Assembly (NCBI GenBank): GCA_051047955.1
Contig: JBPGPT010000004.1
Span: forward strand, 124,001 to 188,000
Source: Cystobasidiomycetes sp. EMM_F5
Taxonomy: Eukaryota
Length of the DNA stretch: 64,000 nt
Reading direction: 5' to 3'
Part shown: positions 20,095 to 29,322 of the stretch, one piece after another
Layout of the letters: each line of letters starts with the position of its first letter
Position numbering within the stretch: position 1 is the first letter of the stretch
Notes under the pieces: model-generated
What the model was told of the DNA's origin: nothing
Seen by the model: the letters and a program-made list of their open reading frames with translations, nothing else
Databases searched by the model: none
Position numbers and translations under genes: made by a program

Positions 20095-21986
20095 ATGCCC
20101 GACACTTCACTGCTGCCGGTATGCAATGAGCCCATCACTTGCTATGGCGCAGCTGATGCGCATTGTGCATTTACAACGCAATAAACACACACCGAACCCG
20201 ATGGCACAATCCACTGATGCGTGTACATACCAAATAGGCGTACACTGCCATTGGAATATCCGCACTGTTGCCAATCTACTATGGATCAAAAGCGTACGTA
20301 TTTGTTCCTTGATTTCATGGAAATAACAAGACTGATAATGCTTTAAACCATGGCTACATAGATCGCTCCAGGTATTAGCTGATCAGACTTGCACGAAACG
20401 AAATATTCGTAGACCGGCTTACCAATCAAAACGCTAGATGCCAAAACGCGCAAAGAAGGCAGTGAAAGCGTTGCAGCCTGACAAGGATATCGACGAGTAC
20501 GACAACGTGGACGAGATTGAACGTGTCACTTCAAGAGAGGCATATCTCTTTCCGATACTAGGAAGCTGTACTTTACTAGGTAGGTGAAATATAGCAGATA
20601 CTGGCTTTCGGTATTTACGGATTTTATGGACGCGTAAAATGCGTGTCTAAAATGTTATTAGGCCTCTTTCTGGCGTTTAAATATCTCGATAAGGTGATTG
20701 AAGAAGATATATACTGATATTCTCCGCTAAATTCGCTTGCACCGATATTTTATTTCTCAACAGAATCTGATAAATAAGATTCTTTCTGCATATTTTGCTC
20801 TGATTGGCACGTTTGGCTTGTCACAAGTACATACAACTATATCTCAGCCAGTAACGGTTGCAGAGCATACTAATTTTGTCGGTTGACGTTCGGAACAACC
20901 CCAGATGATCTCATGGATATCCCGACAAATATTCAGCAGGGAGCGATTCTCCTCCGCTGACGAATGGAAGCTTGAACTCACAAAAGGCACAGTCAAGTAC
21001 TTGACCTGCACTTTTTCAAACCTCGACCTTGCCGTTCTCCCTTTTTCAATGGCTTTGACGGGCTTTCAGACATATACCAACAACTGGATCGCATCAAACG
21101 TTCTCGGCCTCGCTCTTGCCTTCAATGGTATTTCCTTCCTCAAACTAGACTCATTTGCAACCGGTGCTATCGTTCTAGCTGGTCTCTTCTTTTACGACAT
21201 CTATTGGGTCTTTTACAGCAGCAAGACTTTTGGCCAATCCGTCATGGCAAGTCGACCCTTTACATATGAATGACAATATTGAAGCTGATGGGTAAGCTGC
21301 TACTAGGTTGCTGTAGCTACAAATTTCGAAGCACCGATAAAGATTGTCTTTCCAAAAGATTTCCTCAAACCCGCTTCCTCTGGCTTTACTATGCTGGGAC
21401 TGGGCGATATCGTCATCCCCGGCATCTTCATTGCGCTCGCACTCAGATTTGACTATAATCGCGCGGTTGATGGGGCGCTTGCAAAGCTCACCACAGGATC
21501 GAGTATCCCAACGCCGAGAGACCGTTTCCCAAAACCGTACTTCCGCGCGGTCCTCGTCAGCTATATTTTGGGTCTGACAACGTGCGTGCCGTTTGTATTT
21601 CAAAGATCATTGATTCTGCTGATATATCTAGACATGCGATGTTCAGGACAATCTACGTCATGCATACGTTCAAAGCAGCACAGCCGGCACTCTTGTATCT
21701 CTCGCCAGCCTGTCTCCTATCAGTGCTTACCGTTGCCCTCTTTCGAGGAGAAGTACGCGCATGTTGGAATTACGTCGATGGCGAAGACGAGCATGACGAG
21801 GTGAAGAAGTCGGAAAATGGAGAGATCGGATCAGACGACGAGAAGAACGGCCCGGACGCTGTGAAAGGAGAACCTGGCAACGAAGGCAACGCGCTCGGCG
21901 AATCTGAAAGTGCTGTGACGGCGGGATCGGAAGAAGCGCGAACAACAAGCAGGAGGCGAAATCCCCATACAGCGGATGCTCCGTAG
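20095..21986 (+). CDS. signal peptide peptidase (GxGD aspartyl intramembrane protease, A22B), copy 1, canonical
   Basis: MPDTSLLP|AYTAIGISALLPIYYGSKA|SLQ; FFYDIYWVF (YD 21193-21198), MLGLGDIVIPG (21397-21408), AQPALLYLSP. Confidence 0.93.
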
Positions 21987-22249: not shown

Positions 22250-23838
22250 ATGTACGGTACGATTCTGGTACGTTTTAGCATCGACAACGTATAGAAGGTT
22301 GCTAAAGCCGATGTCAATGCTCATCCAGTCTCTTGCTGCAATGGCTGCTACAGCTGTTTTACCTATATACTACGGTTCTCATGCGTGAATGCTAAAATTC
22401 AGATGGCCGCTCTGCTCGCTTGCGCTGACTTTGCAGAATCCCGTAACTTATTCCAATAAGTTCCCTGGAAGTATGTTCCCTTTGAGCCGTTGAGACAAAG
22501 CAGCGGCTAAGGGTTTGCCTTTTTCTGCTGTCAAGGTGCCGCAAAGCATATGCGAGATGCTACCCGCACCCCATTCTACTCCAACGGCCGTTCCACAGAC
22601 GAAACGCCGAACGCCACGCATCACCTCAACGCAAGCAATGCTGTTTCCGGTGTTTCTGAGTTGCAGCTTGCTAGGTTGGTGCTCCGTTGCGGAGCTTTTG
22701 AATCGCTGCTGAAAGAATCTTGCAGTTGTGTACTACATCTCTGGCCGTCAGGACGCCGACAATGAGGACGGCAGGACGCAGGAGGTACCGCTACATTAAT
22801 GCTTGCAGGTCTTTGAGTATGTATCGGTTGATGGTCTGTAATCCGGCATCAGCAGACTTGGACAGTGTTCATATTGGCGATCGTCTTAAAGATCTATTAC
22901 GCGACACTTGGATTCTTTGCTTTGGCAAATGTACAAACTGTACTCACGGTCCAATTTTATCAGACTGAGTATCCTCTTATTTTTAGGCTGTGGCATACAT
23001 CAAATGGAAGTCAACAAAACAAAACCCGACCTATGCAACTGGTCCAGACAACCCTTTCTCGTGCATTCCTTGTGCGCTCGTTCTCGTTCTACTCTACCTT
23101 TTTACGCAAAATTGGGCCATAGGCAATGTGATGGCCATTTCGGTGTGCTTCTTTCTGCTGTCTACCGCTAGATTGGACTGTTTGGCTACCGGAATCAAGC
23201 TTCTGATCGGGGTTGCGATATACGATCTTTACTGGGTCTTTTGGAGCAGTGCGTTCTTTGGCGACAACGTCATGGTGGGTTGACATTCAGTGAACTGGAC
23301 TTATTTGAATCTGATCGGCCTTCCTGGCCATCCTGTATCTTTAGGATTCAACAATGACCCTGACATCTGTCCAGCTCAATTTAGTCTACCCGCGCGATCT
23401 ATTTCACCCGCTTCAACCCGATACAATTCTGTTGGGCCTTGGCGACATCGCTCTTCCTGGCATGTTCCTCTCCTTCTTACTTCGTTATGATTACTACCAG
23501 GCGTGTCAACGGGCAATAGCAAACTTCGAGACCAAGATCCCGAATCCTAGAGATAGCTTCTTAAAGCTATACTTTCACGCTGGAATCCTTGCATACCTCT
23601 TGGGCTTAGCAGTGTGAGAGAACGCCTGGCAGAACGGATGTACGCTCCAATCTGACCATGTCCATGGCATTGCCCTTAAATTTTCAGCGCCAGTCTCGTA
23701 GTGTATGCTTCTGGTGAAGGCCAGCCAGCGCTGGTGTATTTGGGCCCAGCCTGCGCATTGTCTGCGCTAATCACTGCATTAGCGCGAGGCGAGCTACGTG
23801 CGTTATGGACCTATATAGACGGAGCGGAGGAGTTTTGA
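22250..23838 (+). CDS. signal peptide peptidase paralog, copy 2, diverged but catalytic motifs intact
   Basis: MYGTIL|SLAAMAATAVLPIYYGSHA|SLE; AIYDLYWVF (YD 23221-23226), LLGLGDIALPG (23435-23446), GQPALVYLGP...GELRALWTYIDGAEEF*. Confidence 0.85.
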
Positions 23839-24245: not shown

Positions 24246-26142
24246 ATGGCCTACTTTACGCCAGACAACCCATCTATAGTTATCGATAAAGCTTTCGACG
24301 TCATCGGCACCATTTCGCAGAATAAATTGGCTGTCAGTGAGGTTCAGCATATGACTCGCTCAGTTCTGACGTCAATGCCGCTTACCTTAGCAACATGCCT
24401 TTCTGTCGAGCGTGTCCCTAGTTCCCATCTACTATGGCGCATATGCGTGAGTGCTTGTAAGCCAGATAGAATTGCTGCACCGCCTAGCTGAGCAGCGTCT
24501 TTCTCAGATCTTTACAGGTATGTCGCGCTATCTATACCGCCAGAAGCAGACGCACGCTTCTGAACACCTGTGTATGTGATACTACGGTGCAGCCGAAAGT
24601 ATTATCGCCCAATTCGAGCAAAGCTGGCAAGCCCAGAGGCGCAAAGGTTGCGTTGGCTAGTATAGTACAGCGAGACTTACGGAGCGTACTTCACATCATC
24701 ATCTCTTCCAGTGAGGGCATCCCAGGTCCCTAGCTATATGGGCACTTCTGACTGATAGGCGGTCACAGGAATCGCATATATGATCTATCGTTTTATAGCC
24801 CGATCCGAAAAAGTGGGCGTCCTCTACACCAATACACTACTCGAGCTTACAGAGATGTCTTAGTTAAAGTTCGCAGTATTGCCATTGGTAGTCGCAGGAA
24901 ATGCGAGAGCGGTGGCACGGGTTCGTCAAACGCGCCCGCGGCAGCCCTGATAAGATTACCATGCTGACTTCCCTTCCTCCAGACCATTAGCTACCTGGTG
25001 GAGAAAGTGATGGCTCTGCTTCCACTTGACCTCATTTCACAATGGCAGAAGAAGCTATGTCTAGACGAGATTGGTGAGTAAACAACTTGACACAAAATTG
25101 ACGAGAGTCATCACCAACGTTCTACGATGGTTTACAGCAGATTACCTGCCGACACAGCTCATGAAGCAAGTAAAAATCAACAAGTTGGCGGGTTACGGAA
25201 TGGCAATGTACCTAGCCTGGTCGGGCAGGTTGTCCAGGCGATCCGGCGCGATGTTCAGCATCTGTTTAGGAATGGCTCGCATCTTCACTCGTACAGCTTA
25301 CCCCGTAGTCAGGCGCAATCATACCATCGGACATCTGGTGGAAGCTGGTCAAGACGTTTACCTCGCTAACAGCTCGATTCCTGCATTCGATACTGTCCAA
25401 ACTTTGCAGACTACAGGTGCCGACAGCCAAACGTCAGAAGTGGTTGTAGACACTGTATTGGACGAGATGCGCGGAAATTCCGCTGCTGAGGTGCGCCATG
25501 CGTGTCGCCTGTCTGTTTAATGGACTTACAAATCGATTACAGGGCTCGGTCGGAAACGAGCATCACTCAGCAATAGACGATGAGCTAGAGCAGCTGAACG
25601 CATCAGACGAGGTCTGTCCCGTGGATGGGACTGAAGCCAACGTCACACTTGATCCCATAGGTGACGCGATTGCAGAGTTAAGGGCAGACGCAAGGCGAAT
25701 CTTCGATCTCTGGGTCGACCGCGTAACACGGTCTGCTAGTTGCATGACGAGCGCAGGTGTTCGAGATGCGGTCGTGCCTGGCGCCTTTATCGCCCATGCG
25801 CTCAAGTATGACTACGTCAACGCAGTGAAATCGGCTGCTAAGTCAGATGTAGCAATGTTTCCTGCAATCGAAGACTCCTTTGATACCCCATTCTTCTATG
25901 CTGCTTTCGCAGGCTATGCAGCTGGGCTTGCAGGGTGAGCATAGCTTCCGATGTCTCCAGGACAAGGCTGACAAATCAACAGTTCTTTTGCTGTGCACAG
26001 AACTACGAAGAGACTGCTACCCGCTCTGGCCCTTGTTCCCGCGGCATCACTCGCTACTACGCTTGCTTATGCCGGCTTTCAAGGACAATTAGAGCAATTC
26101 CTGAAGTTTAATGATGCAGAACCCATCGCAATCGAGATCTGA
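24246..26142 (+). CDS. SPP-like paralog, copy 3, predicted catalytically inactive
   Basis: VPIYYGAYA|SLQ with same intron layout as copies 1-2; AGVRDAVVPGAFIAHALKYDY aligns to LGLGDIVIPGIFIALALRFDY; FDTPFFYAAFAGYAAGL; LLPALAL; no YD; internal exon boundaries 24590-25070 uncertain. Confidence 0.72.
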
Positions 26143-26260
26143 GCCGGACAGGAGTACTCAGGAATGCCTTGATGACGATAAGTAATGACAATAAGTAATG
26201 CAAAATTCCGAAATGGCCAGAATGTTTAGCTGTGAAGAGCCATTGACCCTACGAAGTGTT

Positions 26261-26314
26261 GCGTCCAGTGTGATATATACCTATGACGCGTCCAGTGTGA
26301 TATATACCTATGAC
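26261..26314. repeat. perfect 27-bp tandem duplication
   Basis: gcgtccagtgtgatatatacctatgac at 26261-26287 and 26288-26314. Confidence 0.95.
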
Positions 26315-26371
26315 GAGTCGTTCTCTTCGTCTTCGTCTTCGGTCCCGTCTTGACCTTCGCCTTCGCTTTCA

Positions 26372-27574
26372 TCAGACTAAGCTCACGTCAGTTGTAGTAT
26401 CATCATCTGTATCAGAATCGGGGAGCCATACCTCATCTTCCGTAGCTAAATGACCCTCAAACGCTTCATCTATTGCTTTCTGCCAATATTCGAACTCCTC
26501 GACTGATCCTATACTTTCTTCGTCCAGTCTATCCAGTCGCGGACTTTTAACAAGATTAGGCAGCCATAACGGATCTCTGTTTAGGAGCTTGACTATGGCT
26601 GAAGAGGTCGAAGGCAGATTCAAAGGTTGTATACAGATCTCAGTTAGGCTTGGAGGAAGTCGTTGCAACCACCTCGCAGAATGTGTCGTCAGCGGTCTAA
26701 AGTACAGGCGAGACAGTGCTGGTCCGGTACAAGCCAGTATCTGTTCGCATGCAGCAGATCCAATTTCGCTGATTAACATTCCGCTAAGTTTCGGCAGCTT
26801 CGTCGGAAGCCATTCATGAACCCAGGCCTCCTCTTCTTCAGGCTCGGCGTTCGATAGATGAGGATCAATTTGCAACCAATCCAGGGTGTGCGCGCATGGT
26901 TCAAGAAGACATCGGAGTAACCGGGTAGAAGGGAGATCGTACGAGGCGACAATCAATGAGGAGAGATTTGTGAATGGTGCTCGCCATTGACTCCAGGCCA
27001 GATCATTCTGTCTGTCTAAGTGTCTGCAGGTACGTGCCTGGAGGGACAGCCATTGCAATGCTGGCGCAGCGGAAAGAAGAGACTGCAGAAGGGACATTGG
27101 CATGTCGTGCAGATACAGTCCTTGCAGCTGATACATTACTGGAAGGGACCGCGGGATTTTGACTGTGGGCGTCGTGCCTATGCGGGCGTGTGCATCGTCG
27201 AGCCAGAGTTCTTCTAAATGCGGCGTAAATTCGAGCAAGCGAGAGTCCGATAGGTGCTCAAGATAGAGGTTTCGAATGTATGAGCCGAGATAAGGTGCGC
27301 CTCTCAGCCTACGAAGCAAAGGTTGTCCCAGTCCTGCATTGCGTTGCCATTCCGAGGATGTGTCGGAATCGGAATCGGCCTCTGTGCTGCGGAATGTGAT
27401 GTCCGTATACAGGTGACTCACGACCAGCGAATGCCACTTTTTGCACACTTCACTGCAAGCCAGGAGATCGCGCTTAATGTCCAGGTATCGTTGCTTTGTC
27501 TCCCAAATCCCTTCAGATTGCGAAAGATGTTCGAAGATTACAGAGAGGATTTCTGATGGGAGCTGTTGAGCCAT
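26372..27574 (-). CDS. F-box protein with LRR/RNI-like C-terminal region, copy A
   Basis: LPSEILSVIFEHL...LLACSEVCKKWHSLVVSHLY; leucine-periodic repeats; WLPNL motif shared with copy B; single exon. Confidence 0.85.
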   Translation of the reverse strand: MAQQLPSEILSVIFEHLSQSEGIWETKQRYLDIKRDLLACSEVCKKWHSLVVSHLYTDITFRSTEADSDSDTSSEWQRNAGLGQPLLRRLRGAPYLGSYIRNLYLEHLSDSRLLEFTPHLEELWLDDAHARIGTTPTVKIPRSLPVMYQLQGLYLHDMPMSLLQSLLSAAPALQWLSLQARTCRHLDRQNDLAWSQWRAPFTNLSSLIVASYDLPSTRLLRCLLEPCAHTLDWLQIDPHLSNAEPEEEEAWVHEWLPTKLPKLSGMLISEIGSAACEQILACTGPALSRLYFRPLTTHSARWLQRLPPSLTEICIQPLNLPSTSSAIVKLLNRDPLWLPNLVKSPRLDRLDEESIGSVEEFEYWQKAIDEAFEGHLATEDEVWLPDSDTDDDTTTDVSLV

Positions 27575-28013
27575 GGAGGGGCCGGGCCATTTGCTGGCAA
27601 CGAGACTTGTATCACCGTCTGTGCAGCGCCAGCGCGCGGCCACCCTCTGAGAGTAGCTCGTTACCAGTTTGCGATGTTTACAGCGGGAGCTCGTAAAGGG
27701 GGATGTAAATGCGTCAGGCAGGGCAGTTGTGCTTGAAAATCAGCTCGAGTTAGAGCGTCTGCCCGTATTGCATATTCAAGTTTGCATAGTACATTTGCGT
27801 TGTTTGCGGGTAATGGGTTGGGCAGCAAAGGGGGTCTGTGCGAGTCCAGTAACGACCCAGAGCAGCATGTTTGACTTCCGCAGCCCTACTTTGGTGCGAA
27901 CGCCAAATTAACGAAAGAACATGACATGCGCGCAACTGCCTTTTGAACAGGCCGGATGTAACATTTCTCCGCAAATTGCAATGGCTAAAATGAACATCGA
28001 TAGAGTAGTCATC

Positions 28014-29322
28014 CTAGATACCGAGTGCTCTCCTACGCATCCACGCCTGCCCTATCGCATCCTGCCATGTCGCCTGCCCTTCTACGGGCTCATCCTCATC
28101 CATATCTGACACGATATGGGGAATATAGGCCAAATTTGGTAGCCACGCCGGACGAGCATCAAGCAGGTCGACGAGATCGGACGCAGTCTCAGCAAAGTCT
28201 TGCGTAATTAATTGCACATTCCGTAAGGATTCTGGGAGCCGCTTGAGCCATTCCTTCGTCAAACGATCACGCGGAAATAGGGTCGCTCGTAATAGTCCAC
28301 TCGCTGCAAGCGCCATGATCCTTCCGCAGGAGGCTTGTGAGATGTTTCGCAGACGCACAGACTCTAACGAGGCGAATTTCCCTGGCAGCCATCCATCTAG
28401 CCACTTACTTTCCTCATCGTCGTTCGAAATGAGCATAGTTTCATCGATAATCTCAAGTCGCAGATATTCCAAAGAGTCAGAGCATCCATTGACCAGCGAG
28501 AGAAGAGCTTGCTCCGAGGGGACGCCCTCCATCTCGATGATCAGATTCTTGAGCCCTTCGCAAGGCAGTATCCAGTCACTCCAGCGGCCATCGTCGTACA
28601 AGCCTGATAGAAAGATTGTGCAGCTAGTCAGAACATACGACACTGATAAAAGGGCTCTGATAAATTTTGGCGGGACCTGCTCCAGGTGTAATGCCTTGAG
28701 AGCGGGCAGCGTGGGGGGCAACCAGTCGTGCAAGACGCTGCTCATAGGTACAGGATCGCGGTAGTTACCGAAGAATAGTCCTGTTAATCGTGATGTGTAT
28801 GTCAGAAGGCGAAGGCCTTCATAGTGGTCAAAGCTTAGATTTCTGACGAAGTCGCCGTTCTCGGGCGACATCTGTAGGCATCGCAGAAGAGACGATATTT
28901 GCCATGGTATCAGGTCATCTACAGGGTGAATATCGTGAGGGTCGCTGTCGTGCTGAATGCATGAAACACGTGAGCATGCTCTCCGATAACTACTCGATAG
29001 CGCGACGTACTTGATGTTCCTGAGGCATACTGACACTAGAAGAAACGTCCACATCATTCGAACTCCCGTCTGCTGGCAGGCGATCTTGCAACAGCTGAGC
29101 AAGCTCTTGGCGACTGATCGCTCGTATAGGATCGGGATTGATCGGCTCTCTAGCGATGATGTCGCGGTAGAGTTGCGATTTCGCTGCTGACTCCCAGGTT
29201 TTGCAGACATTCACGCATGCTAGCAGGTTCCTTTTAACGCTGATGTATTCGAGGTCGTCGTAATACGGCGTGAGATGCTCGAATATCAGGTAAAGGATGT
29301 CATGAGATAATGCGGACGCCAT
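28014..29322 (-). CDS. F-box protein with LRR/RNI-like C-terminal region, copy B (2 exons)
   Basis: LSHDILYLIFEHL...KRNLLACVNVCKTWESAAKSQLY; one phase-0 intron (gtacgt...ttcag) joins ORF 28990..29322 to ORF 28014..29210; WLKRLPESL, WLPNL. Confidence 0.85.

Follow-up and report, generated by a model that had tools for sequence, protein, structure and literature searches.

The tandem SPP locus and its closest described systems

Signal peptide peptidases (SPPs) cut within membranes by means of a catalytic centre composed of a Y/FD motif in transmembrane helix (TM) 6, a GxGD motif in TM7 and a QPALLY motif in TM9, the loop between TM6 and TM7 being lumenal (PMC11012144). Among the fungal members that have been studied are Spp1 of Ustilago maydis (PMC6490947) and the SPP of Phaffia rhodozyma (PMC13026331). 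The glycines of GxGD are reported to be highly critical for gamma-secretase (PMC6551803), and inactive forms have been engineered on purpose, including SPP mutants without catalytic activity and the D271A allele of SPPL3 (PMC7366577) as well as presenilin GxGD glycine mutants (cited in PMC6551803). In the rhomboid family, iRhoms and Derlins are intramembrane pseudoproteases (PMC3149277), and Derlin-1 is one that works with SPP (PMC7366577). In the open-access literature searched, no description was found of an SPP/presenilin family member that naturally lacks catalytic activity. Here we describe copy 3, the third and strongly altered gene of a tandem SPP array in Cystobasidiomycetes sp. EMM_F5 (assembly GCA_051047955.1), located in a 64,000-nucleotide stretch of contig JBPGPT010000004.1 (positions 124,001 to 188,000, forward strand), which as a whole is referred to as the window.

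The window is eukaryotic in character and rich in GT-AG introns of 40-160 bases. Three genes of the SPP family (Pfam PF04258; MEROPS A22B) lie head to tail on the + strand of this 64-kb window. A word-indexed protein search with an exon of copy 1 matched P0001 and P0002 only; the best named match, P0001 (a hypothetical protein of Cystobasidium minutum, 56% identity), served as guide for a spliced protein-to-DNA aligner built for this study. As a single best match, P0001 points to a probable origin in a basidiomycete yeast or related fungus.

20244..21986, + strand: copy 1, canonical SPP with YD, GLGD and QPAL, the reference paralogue; end-to-end spliced alignment to P0001, score 1012
22311..23838 (about), + strand: copy 2, divergent SPP that keeps YD, GLGD and QPAL; spliced alignment score 433
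24246..26142, + strand: copy 3, third tandem SPP paralogue; nine exons, 485 codons

Spliced alignment of copy 3 to P0001 scored 126 and was good only at TM1 and TM7-TM9. The N-terminal exons of copy 2 are uncertain in its model (10-base micro-exon, weak splice sites); this copy has a long terminal branch of 1.2 changes per column and 49% identity to copy 1 from TM7 to the C-terminus. Copy 1 contains a GC-AG intron at 21247-21306 (donor GCAAGT, 60 bases) after ...GQSVM, whose place in copy 2 is taken by a GT-AG intron.

In copy 3 the GLGD motif reads GVRD (25756-25767), keeping the Asp but with Arg in place of the preceding Gly, and QPAL reads LPAL (26017-26028), with PAL kept within LPALAL and the flanking Q and LY lost. 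At the position of the YD helix lies the segment SRRSGAMFSICLGMARIF (25233-25286), from which Asp is absent, and the loop preceding TM7 is acidic and has grown to 129 residues. These changes had been named in the original prediction, which read copy 3 as an intramembrane pseudoprotease with a new acidic loop, and each was found at the sequence level. We give slightly better than even credence to copy 3 being a conserved non-proteolytic SPP-like protein, that is, a functional and maintained, very divergent family member whose protease activity has most probably been lost.

Copy 3 resembles canonical fungal SPPs (copy 1, P0001) in its tandem position, in common intron sites and phases, in PIYYG within TM1, and in TM7-TM9 with D-x-x-PG-x-F, [KR]-[YF]-DY and PAL. 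Unlike them, it has no YD helix, carries GVRD for GLGD and LPALAL for QPALLY, has an acidic TM6-TM7 loop of about 129 residues instead of about 40 together with less hydrophobic helices, is 30 residues longer at the N-terminus and has two additional introns. It is like iRhoms and Derlins in concept, as a polytopic intramembrane-protease homologue with a presumably disabled site that is conserved nonetheless; however, its fold is unrelated, it belongs to the aspartyl rather than the serine class, and its conservation is seen in two organisms and in the C-terminal third only. iRhoms have a conserved bulky residue, a proline, beside the former catalytic position, to which the conserved Arg before the Asp of copy 3 would be analogous. 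Engineered inactive SPP, SPPL and presenilin mutants, which are still able to fold and can exert effects themselves, are changed at the same positions as copy 3, but the changes in copy 3 are natural and fixed; in addition, its TM4-TM6 have diverged throughout and its loop has received a large insertion.

Predicted gene structure of copy 3

The gene model of copy 3 was predicted from the DNA sequence by reading three frames and checking each junction. It comprises nine exons with 485 codons plus stop and eight GT-AG introns of 43-64 bases, six of which contain a YTRAY branch-like motif. The open exons and intact splice sites claimed originally for the second half of the gene thereby extend over its full length.

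24246..24332, + strand: exon 1, ATG at 24246; N-terminal extension absent from copies 1 and 2; donor GTCAGT; codon score +8.5 bits
24391..24446, + strand: exon 2, TM1 equivalent with PIYYGAYA, the conserved N-terminal SPP motif according to spliced alignment and to domain 1 of a custom hidden Markov model (HMM)
24508..24725, + strand: exon 3, basic loop and first half of the TM2 equivalent; ends in phase 1 within a Gly codon, like the copy 1 exon
24769..24812, + strand: exon 4, second half of the TM2 equivalent, ending ...RSEK; phase-0 donor GTGGGC at the site of the copy 1 ...YLDK intron
24864..24920, + strand: exon 5, TM3 equivalent (LKFAVLPLVVAGNARAVAR); open between acceptor TGTCTTAG and donor GTTCGT
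24983..25073, + strand: exon 6, starting TISYLVEK; donor GTGAGT
25138..25490, + strand: exon 7, a pair of weak hydrophobic segments, then the opening portion of the acidic loop; sole open frame here; codon score +17.3 bits
25344..25409, + strand: 66-base in-frame segment (AGQDVYLANSSIPAFDTVQTLQ); starts GCTGGT and ends CTTTGCAG, with CTAAC 41 bases before its end
25543..25934, + strand: exon 8, remainder of the acidic loop, followed by TM7 (GVRD at 25756-25767), loop 7 and TM8
25983..26142, + strand: exon 9, TM9 with LPAL (26017-26028), C-terminal tail and stop; phase-2 junction after GLAG, compare copy 1 after GLTT

According to the model coordinates, four of the six introns of copy 1 occur at the identical residue and phase in copy 3: in phase 1 within the Gly ending the first half of TM2, in phase 0 after ...K, in phase 0 before [MTA][IV]S[WY], and in phase 2 after GL[TA][TG]. 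At the third of these sites the TISYLVEK that starts exon 6 corresponds to MISWISRQ in copy 1 and AVAYIKWK in copy 2, each directly 3' of an intron. The fifth copy 1 intron is displaced by four bases in copy 3, a version also present in copy 2, and the sixth corresponds to the 66-base in-frame segment. Copy 3 introns without a copy 1 counterpart are 24333-24390 (58 bases, following exon 1, with CTGAC 22 bases before its end), 25074-25137 (64 bases, following exon 6, with no counterpart in copy 2 either) and 25491-25542. Tandem position together with intron sites and phases shows common descent with the canonical SPP genes.

Coding potential was scored with a codon log-odds model whose training set was 25 long reading frames from other parts of the window. 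In frame, copy 3 reached 0.172 bits per codon, compared to 0.196 for copy 1, 0.132 for copy 2 and -0.07 to 0.27 for the training frames, and the two wrong frames of copy 3 totalled -210 and -169 bits. All nine exons scored positive in the chosen frame and above both other frames.

A DNA contig from a public sequencing run aligned to 25298-25518 without gaps and with a single difference, A>G at 25452, and a second such contig was identical to the window over 26045-26195. This shows that near-identical DNA is present elsewhere and that the 66-base segment carries no indel there; an assembly indel is therefore an unlikely cause of the YD loss. By our reading, the A>G difference changes Thr to Ala in the acidic loop.

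Altered motifs, the acidic loop and a relative from another organism

Pfam PF04258 scored 22.1-22.4 bits on the exon-8 reading frame, against a cut-off of 23.3, and a custom SPP HMM made from 7 canonical sequences gave spliced copy 3 67.7 bits over TM7-TM9 plus a 4-bit match at TM1 (PIYYGAYAS). With exon 8 as query, a full HMMER scan against 1.84 billion representative proteins returned 6 matches at E <= 0.001, P0003-P0008. P0003 is the unspliced reading frame of the window itself (100%), which starts inside an intron; P0006, P0007 and P0008 are canonical SPPs (P0006 and P0008 as fragments, P0007 full-length), and P0005 is an unrelated repeat protein. In P0007 (412 residues) a canonical SPP domain (PF04258, 198 bits) is joined to a fragment of a PIG-V mannosyltransferase (PF04188, 42 bits), which may represent a merged gene model or a genuine fusion.

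The remaining match, P0004, is a 166-residue protein fragment from another organism with 47% identity to exon 8 (E 3e-21). It begins inside the loop, reads straight through the exon 8/9 junction of copy 3 and scores 35.5 bits with PF04258, above the cut-off. From TM7 to the C-terminus it is 53% identical to copy 3, whereas each of the two is 25-35% identical to six canonical rows (copy 3 alone 29-35%). Maximum-likelihood analysis of 8 rows grouped copy 3 with P0004 in a clade on a long stem (support 100/100). Neither GVRD of copy 3 nor KMRD of P0004 has the small Gly that the GxGD motif places before the second catalytic Asp, and this Arg before Asp is one of several derived states common to both, along with a His in TM7, LKYDY and PALAL-PAAS (P0004 reads APALAL). 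The two proteins also end at the same distance past a common EPI motif. Identity between them is uneven: 17/21 positions (81%) in TM7, 12/19 in TM8 and 15/28 in loop 8 plus TM9, compared to 10/34 in the juxtamembrane stretch, 9/25 in loop 7 and 7/20 in the tail.

Gene-like codon usage and the existence of P0004 with the same derived features favour a maintained gene rather than a decaying copy. The uneven conservation has the pattern expected of purifying selection on the membrane core, and since the Gly-to-Arg change is common to copy 3 and P0004, it is old and fixed rather than a sign of fresh decay. P0004 stops short of TM6.

Further searches for relatives and structures were negative. Word-indexed protein searches gave zero matches for exon 8 among longer proteins and for exon 7 among proteins of similar length, the window's own frame included. 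PDB sequence searches, run with P0004 and with exon 7, matched neither SPP nor presenilin, the ESM Atlas yielded nothing usable (best score 0.80), and an AlphaFold2 model of P0004 from a 3-row alignment was unusable (mean predicted local distance difference test score, pLDDT, 43.5; predicted template modelling score, pTM, 0.26). In a metagenome scan with P0004 the sole match, locus L001, covered 22 C-terminal residues only, had no SPP-like sequence and was judged spurious.

Upstream of the loop, the Y/F-D motif of TM6 is missing from copy 3. Its coding frame from ADYL to AGQD contains zero Asp and a single Glu, and Asp or Glu is absent from both hydrophobic segments of exon 7 that are eligible as YD helix, LAGYGMAMYLAWSG (25185-25226) and SRRSGAMFSICLGMARIF. 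These two weak segments stand where the three helices TM4-TM6 would be expected. The middle part of copy 3 was not aligned by hmmsearch, hmmalign or hhalign, and local alignment of exon 7 with TM4-TM6 of five canonical SPPs was not above chance (P = 0.63 in the coding frame, 0.085 and 0.38 in the others; 400 codon-permuted nulls, with similar nulls from about 800 scores of other genomic pieces). In copy 3, TM4-TM6 have diverged beyond recognition. Because they lack significant similarity to canonical SPP in any frame, the claim that the YD helix has been replaced is to be read as a statement about position: Asp-free segments do occupy that position, but equivalence to the helix was not above chance and the aligners disagree.

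An off-frame remnant, WLASSLVQLTP*SGAIIPSDIWWKLVKTF (about 25270-25365, in the frame of 25138), was considered and rejected, as it contains two stops and three deletions and reached P = 0.085 by codon permutation and 0.10 against genomic pieces. It recalls canonical WIAS, TGAIV, YDIYW and KTF in order, probably by chance, or else as the trace of an old frameshift.

The 66-base segment lies directly 3' of ...HLVE. At this point copy 1 carries its GC-AG intron (after ...QSVM), and copy 2 carries an intron as well (after ...DNVM). Read in frame, the segment has a gene-like codon score of 0.22 bits per codon. Judged by its position and splice-like ends, it looks like an exonised intron, or it could be a GC-AG intron that is still spliced.

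The loop of copy 3, counted from RRNHTIG to the residue before SAGVRD, contains 24 Asp/Glu and 8 Lys/Arg in its 129 residues, a net charge of -16, in agreement with the acidic loop of about 130 residues described originally. The four sequons listed at that time are also present: NHT (25317), NSS (25368), NAS (25597) and NVT (25639). Four sequons compare to 0.94 expected (20,000 loop shuffles; P = 0.004, post hoc), and no sequon occurs in copies 1 and 2. Were the SPP topology retained, the enlarged loop would face the lumen of the endoplasmic reticulum (ER), where the sequons would be usable. Upstream of DPIG, however, only 5/18 aligned positions are identical between the loops of copy 3 and P0004, with a large difference in length and zero common sequons. 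The loop is fast-evolving and more likely to be an addition that is tolerated or particular to the lineage than to be the functional core. An intron excising the whole insert, for example with an acceptor before GTGACGCG at about 25660, was rejected on our reading that the phases mismatch.

Proposed role, alternative explanations and neighbouring sequence

An Arg in place of the obligatory small Gly before the TM7 Asp, together with the absent YD helix, would disable the two-aspartate site. The conserved Arg and the loss of the YD helix make a working di-aspartyl site unlikely, whereas continued use of the protein is indicated by the conservation of its TM7-TM9 half. This half (xRD-AV-PGAFI-HALKYDY, PAL) would still form the helix-docking scaffold of the family; in the ER membrane, copy 3 would bind transmembrane helices or act as a partner of the active SPP copies, but would not cut. 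Such helix binding or modulation of SPP we infer by analogy with iRhoms, Derlins and inactive SPP mutants. From the pseudoprotease reading in the original prediction, the open SPP-family gene and the broken signature were retained, and the Gly-to-Arg change shared with P0004 was added, while the regulator, substrate trap or sensor proposed with it stays hypothetical; a compensating Asp, that of AGQDVY, could still undo its conclusion.

Several observations weigh against a maintained, non-proteolytic protein. The TM7 Asp is retained in the best-conserved stretch and could still do chemistry. The nearest Asp to the Asp-free segments follows them by about 20 residues, in AGQDVY (25350-25355); it is preceded by Gln, belongs to a segment of weak hydrophobicity and could in principle pair with the TM7 Asp. 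Helices are poorly defined: copy 3 has 7 hydrophobic peaks of at least 0.9 (Kyte-Doolittle, 19-residue window), with means of 0.99-1.64, all weaker than those of copy 1 (1.22-2.13) and copy 2 (1.48-2.15), so that the nine-helix fold is not established. The coding signal of exon 3 is weak (+3.6 bits over 72 codons), and expression and splicing of copy 3 are predicted. P0004 is the sole orthologue-like sequence found and spans no part of TM1-TM6, and the YD loss is accordingly known from this genome alone.

These two Asp residues are the basis of one alternative, namely that copy 3 has remained proteolytic by means of a non-canonical site, in which Asp257 (AGQDVY) or an unrecognised residue pairs with the Asp of GVRD while the Arg tunes substrate access or pKa. 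MAFFT sets the AGQDVY Asp on the YD Asp, with TIGHLVEAG-QDVYLANSS opposite TGAIVLAGLFFYDIYWVFYSS and TIGHLVEAG-QDVY opposite TGAIVLAGLFFYDIY; PAL is kept, and the surroundings of the TM7 Asp are the best conserved part in the comparison with P0004 (17/21). But the MAFFT placement is not above chance and other aligners disagree with it, since in hhalign and the spliced aligner the YD stands opposite ...MARIFTRT... and TIGHLVE opposite TFGQSVM. The AGQDVY segment moreover has a mean Kyte-Doolittle value of about 0.45 by hand count, compared to about 1.2 in canonical TM6, and it lies inside the 66-base piece at the intron position of the paralogues, which may be spliced out. The GxGD glycines, too, are reported to be highly critical (PMC6551803). 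We regard an active enzyme as unlikely. A decaying or non-functional tandem duplicate whose frame is open by chance, which we consider distinctly unlikely, would explain the broken catalytic motifs, TM4-TM6 that are unrecognisable in all frames, the lower hydrophobicity of all helices and a possible off-frame TM5-TM6 remnant at about 25270-25365 (P = 0.085). It is at odds with 485 open codons in nine exons separated by eight canonical introns, with codon usage that resembles real genes, and with conservation that ranges from 81% in TM7 to about 30% in the loops. The lineage is also older than the split from the organism of P0004, and both sequences are open to the same C-terminal end; by our estimate, several stops per lineage would be expected had identity fallen to 47-53% through neutral drift.

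The limits of the detectable similarity allow yet another explanation, in which a C-terminal module consisting of the juxtamembrane helix and TM7-TM9 is the sole conserved functional unit and the N-terminal two thirds are drifting or mis-modelled. Matches to the SPP profile are indeed limited to TM7-TM9 and the short PIYYGAYAS, P0004 as called begins within the loop, and the searches with exon 7 were without matches. Yet exon 7 is an open frame of 117 codons with a gene-like codon score where the other two frames are closed, and intron positions in the N-terminal half agree with copy 1. The start of P0004, for its part, is a reading-frame call and no proof of a real N-terminus, as illustrated by P0003, which starts in an intron. 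We rank this explanation as the least probable and retain a maintained, non-proteolytic SPP-like protein as the preferred interpretation of copy 3.

Taken further, copy 3 and P0004 might constitute the first natural lineage of pseudoproteases within the GxGD superfamily of presenilins and SPPs, a conserved fungal clade defined by Arg-Asp in TM7 and loss of the YD helix, which would act as a non-cutting helix receptor or as a modulatory subunit of active SPP in the ER membrane and thus be the aspartyl counterpart of iRhoms and Derlins. We put this forward tentatively, as a proposal that stands at well below even chances. Inactive rhomboid relatives, iRhoms and Derlins, proved to have a central regulatory role in how membrane proteins are trafficked and degraded. 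If the proposal is true, copy 3, which adjoins canonical copy 1 and motif-keeping copy 2, would offer a genetic handle on non-proteolytic roles of the SPP fold such as substrate docking, oligomerisation and links to ER-associated degradation, and would show which parts of the scaffold (TM7, PAL) are kept once catalysis has been given up.

Downstream of copy 3 and convergent with it lie two tandem, paralogous reading frames, which share 30% identity over 293 residues (E 2e-35).

26375..27739, - strand: reading frame with an F-box-like domain (PF12937, 33.5 bits)
28017..29210, - strand: reading frame without a Pfam match

The sequence just 3' of the copy 3 stop codon (26261-26319 and 26172-26200) contains a 27-base unit repeated 2.2 times in tandem and a 13-base unit repeated 2.2 times, followed by (TCTTCG)3.

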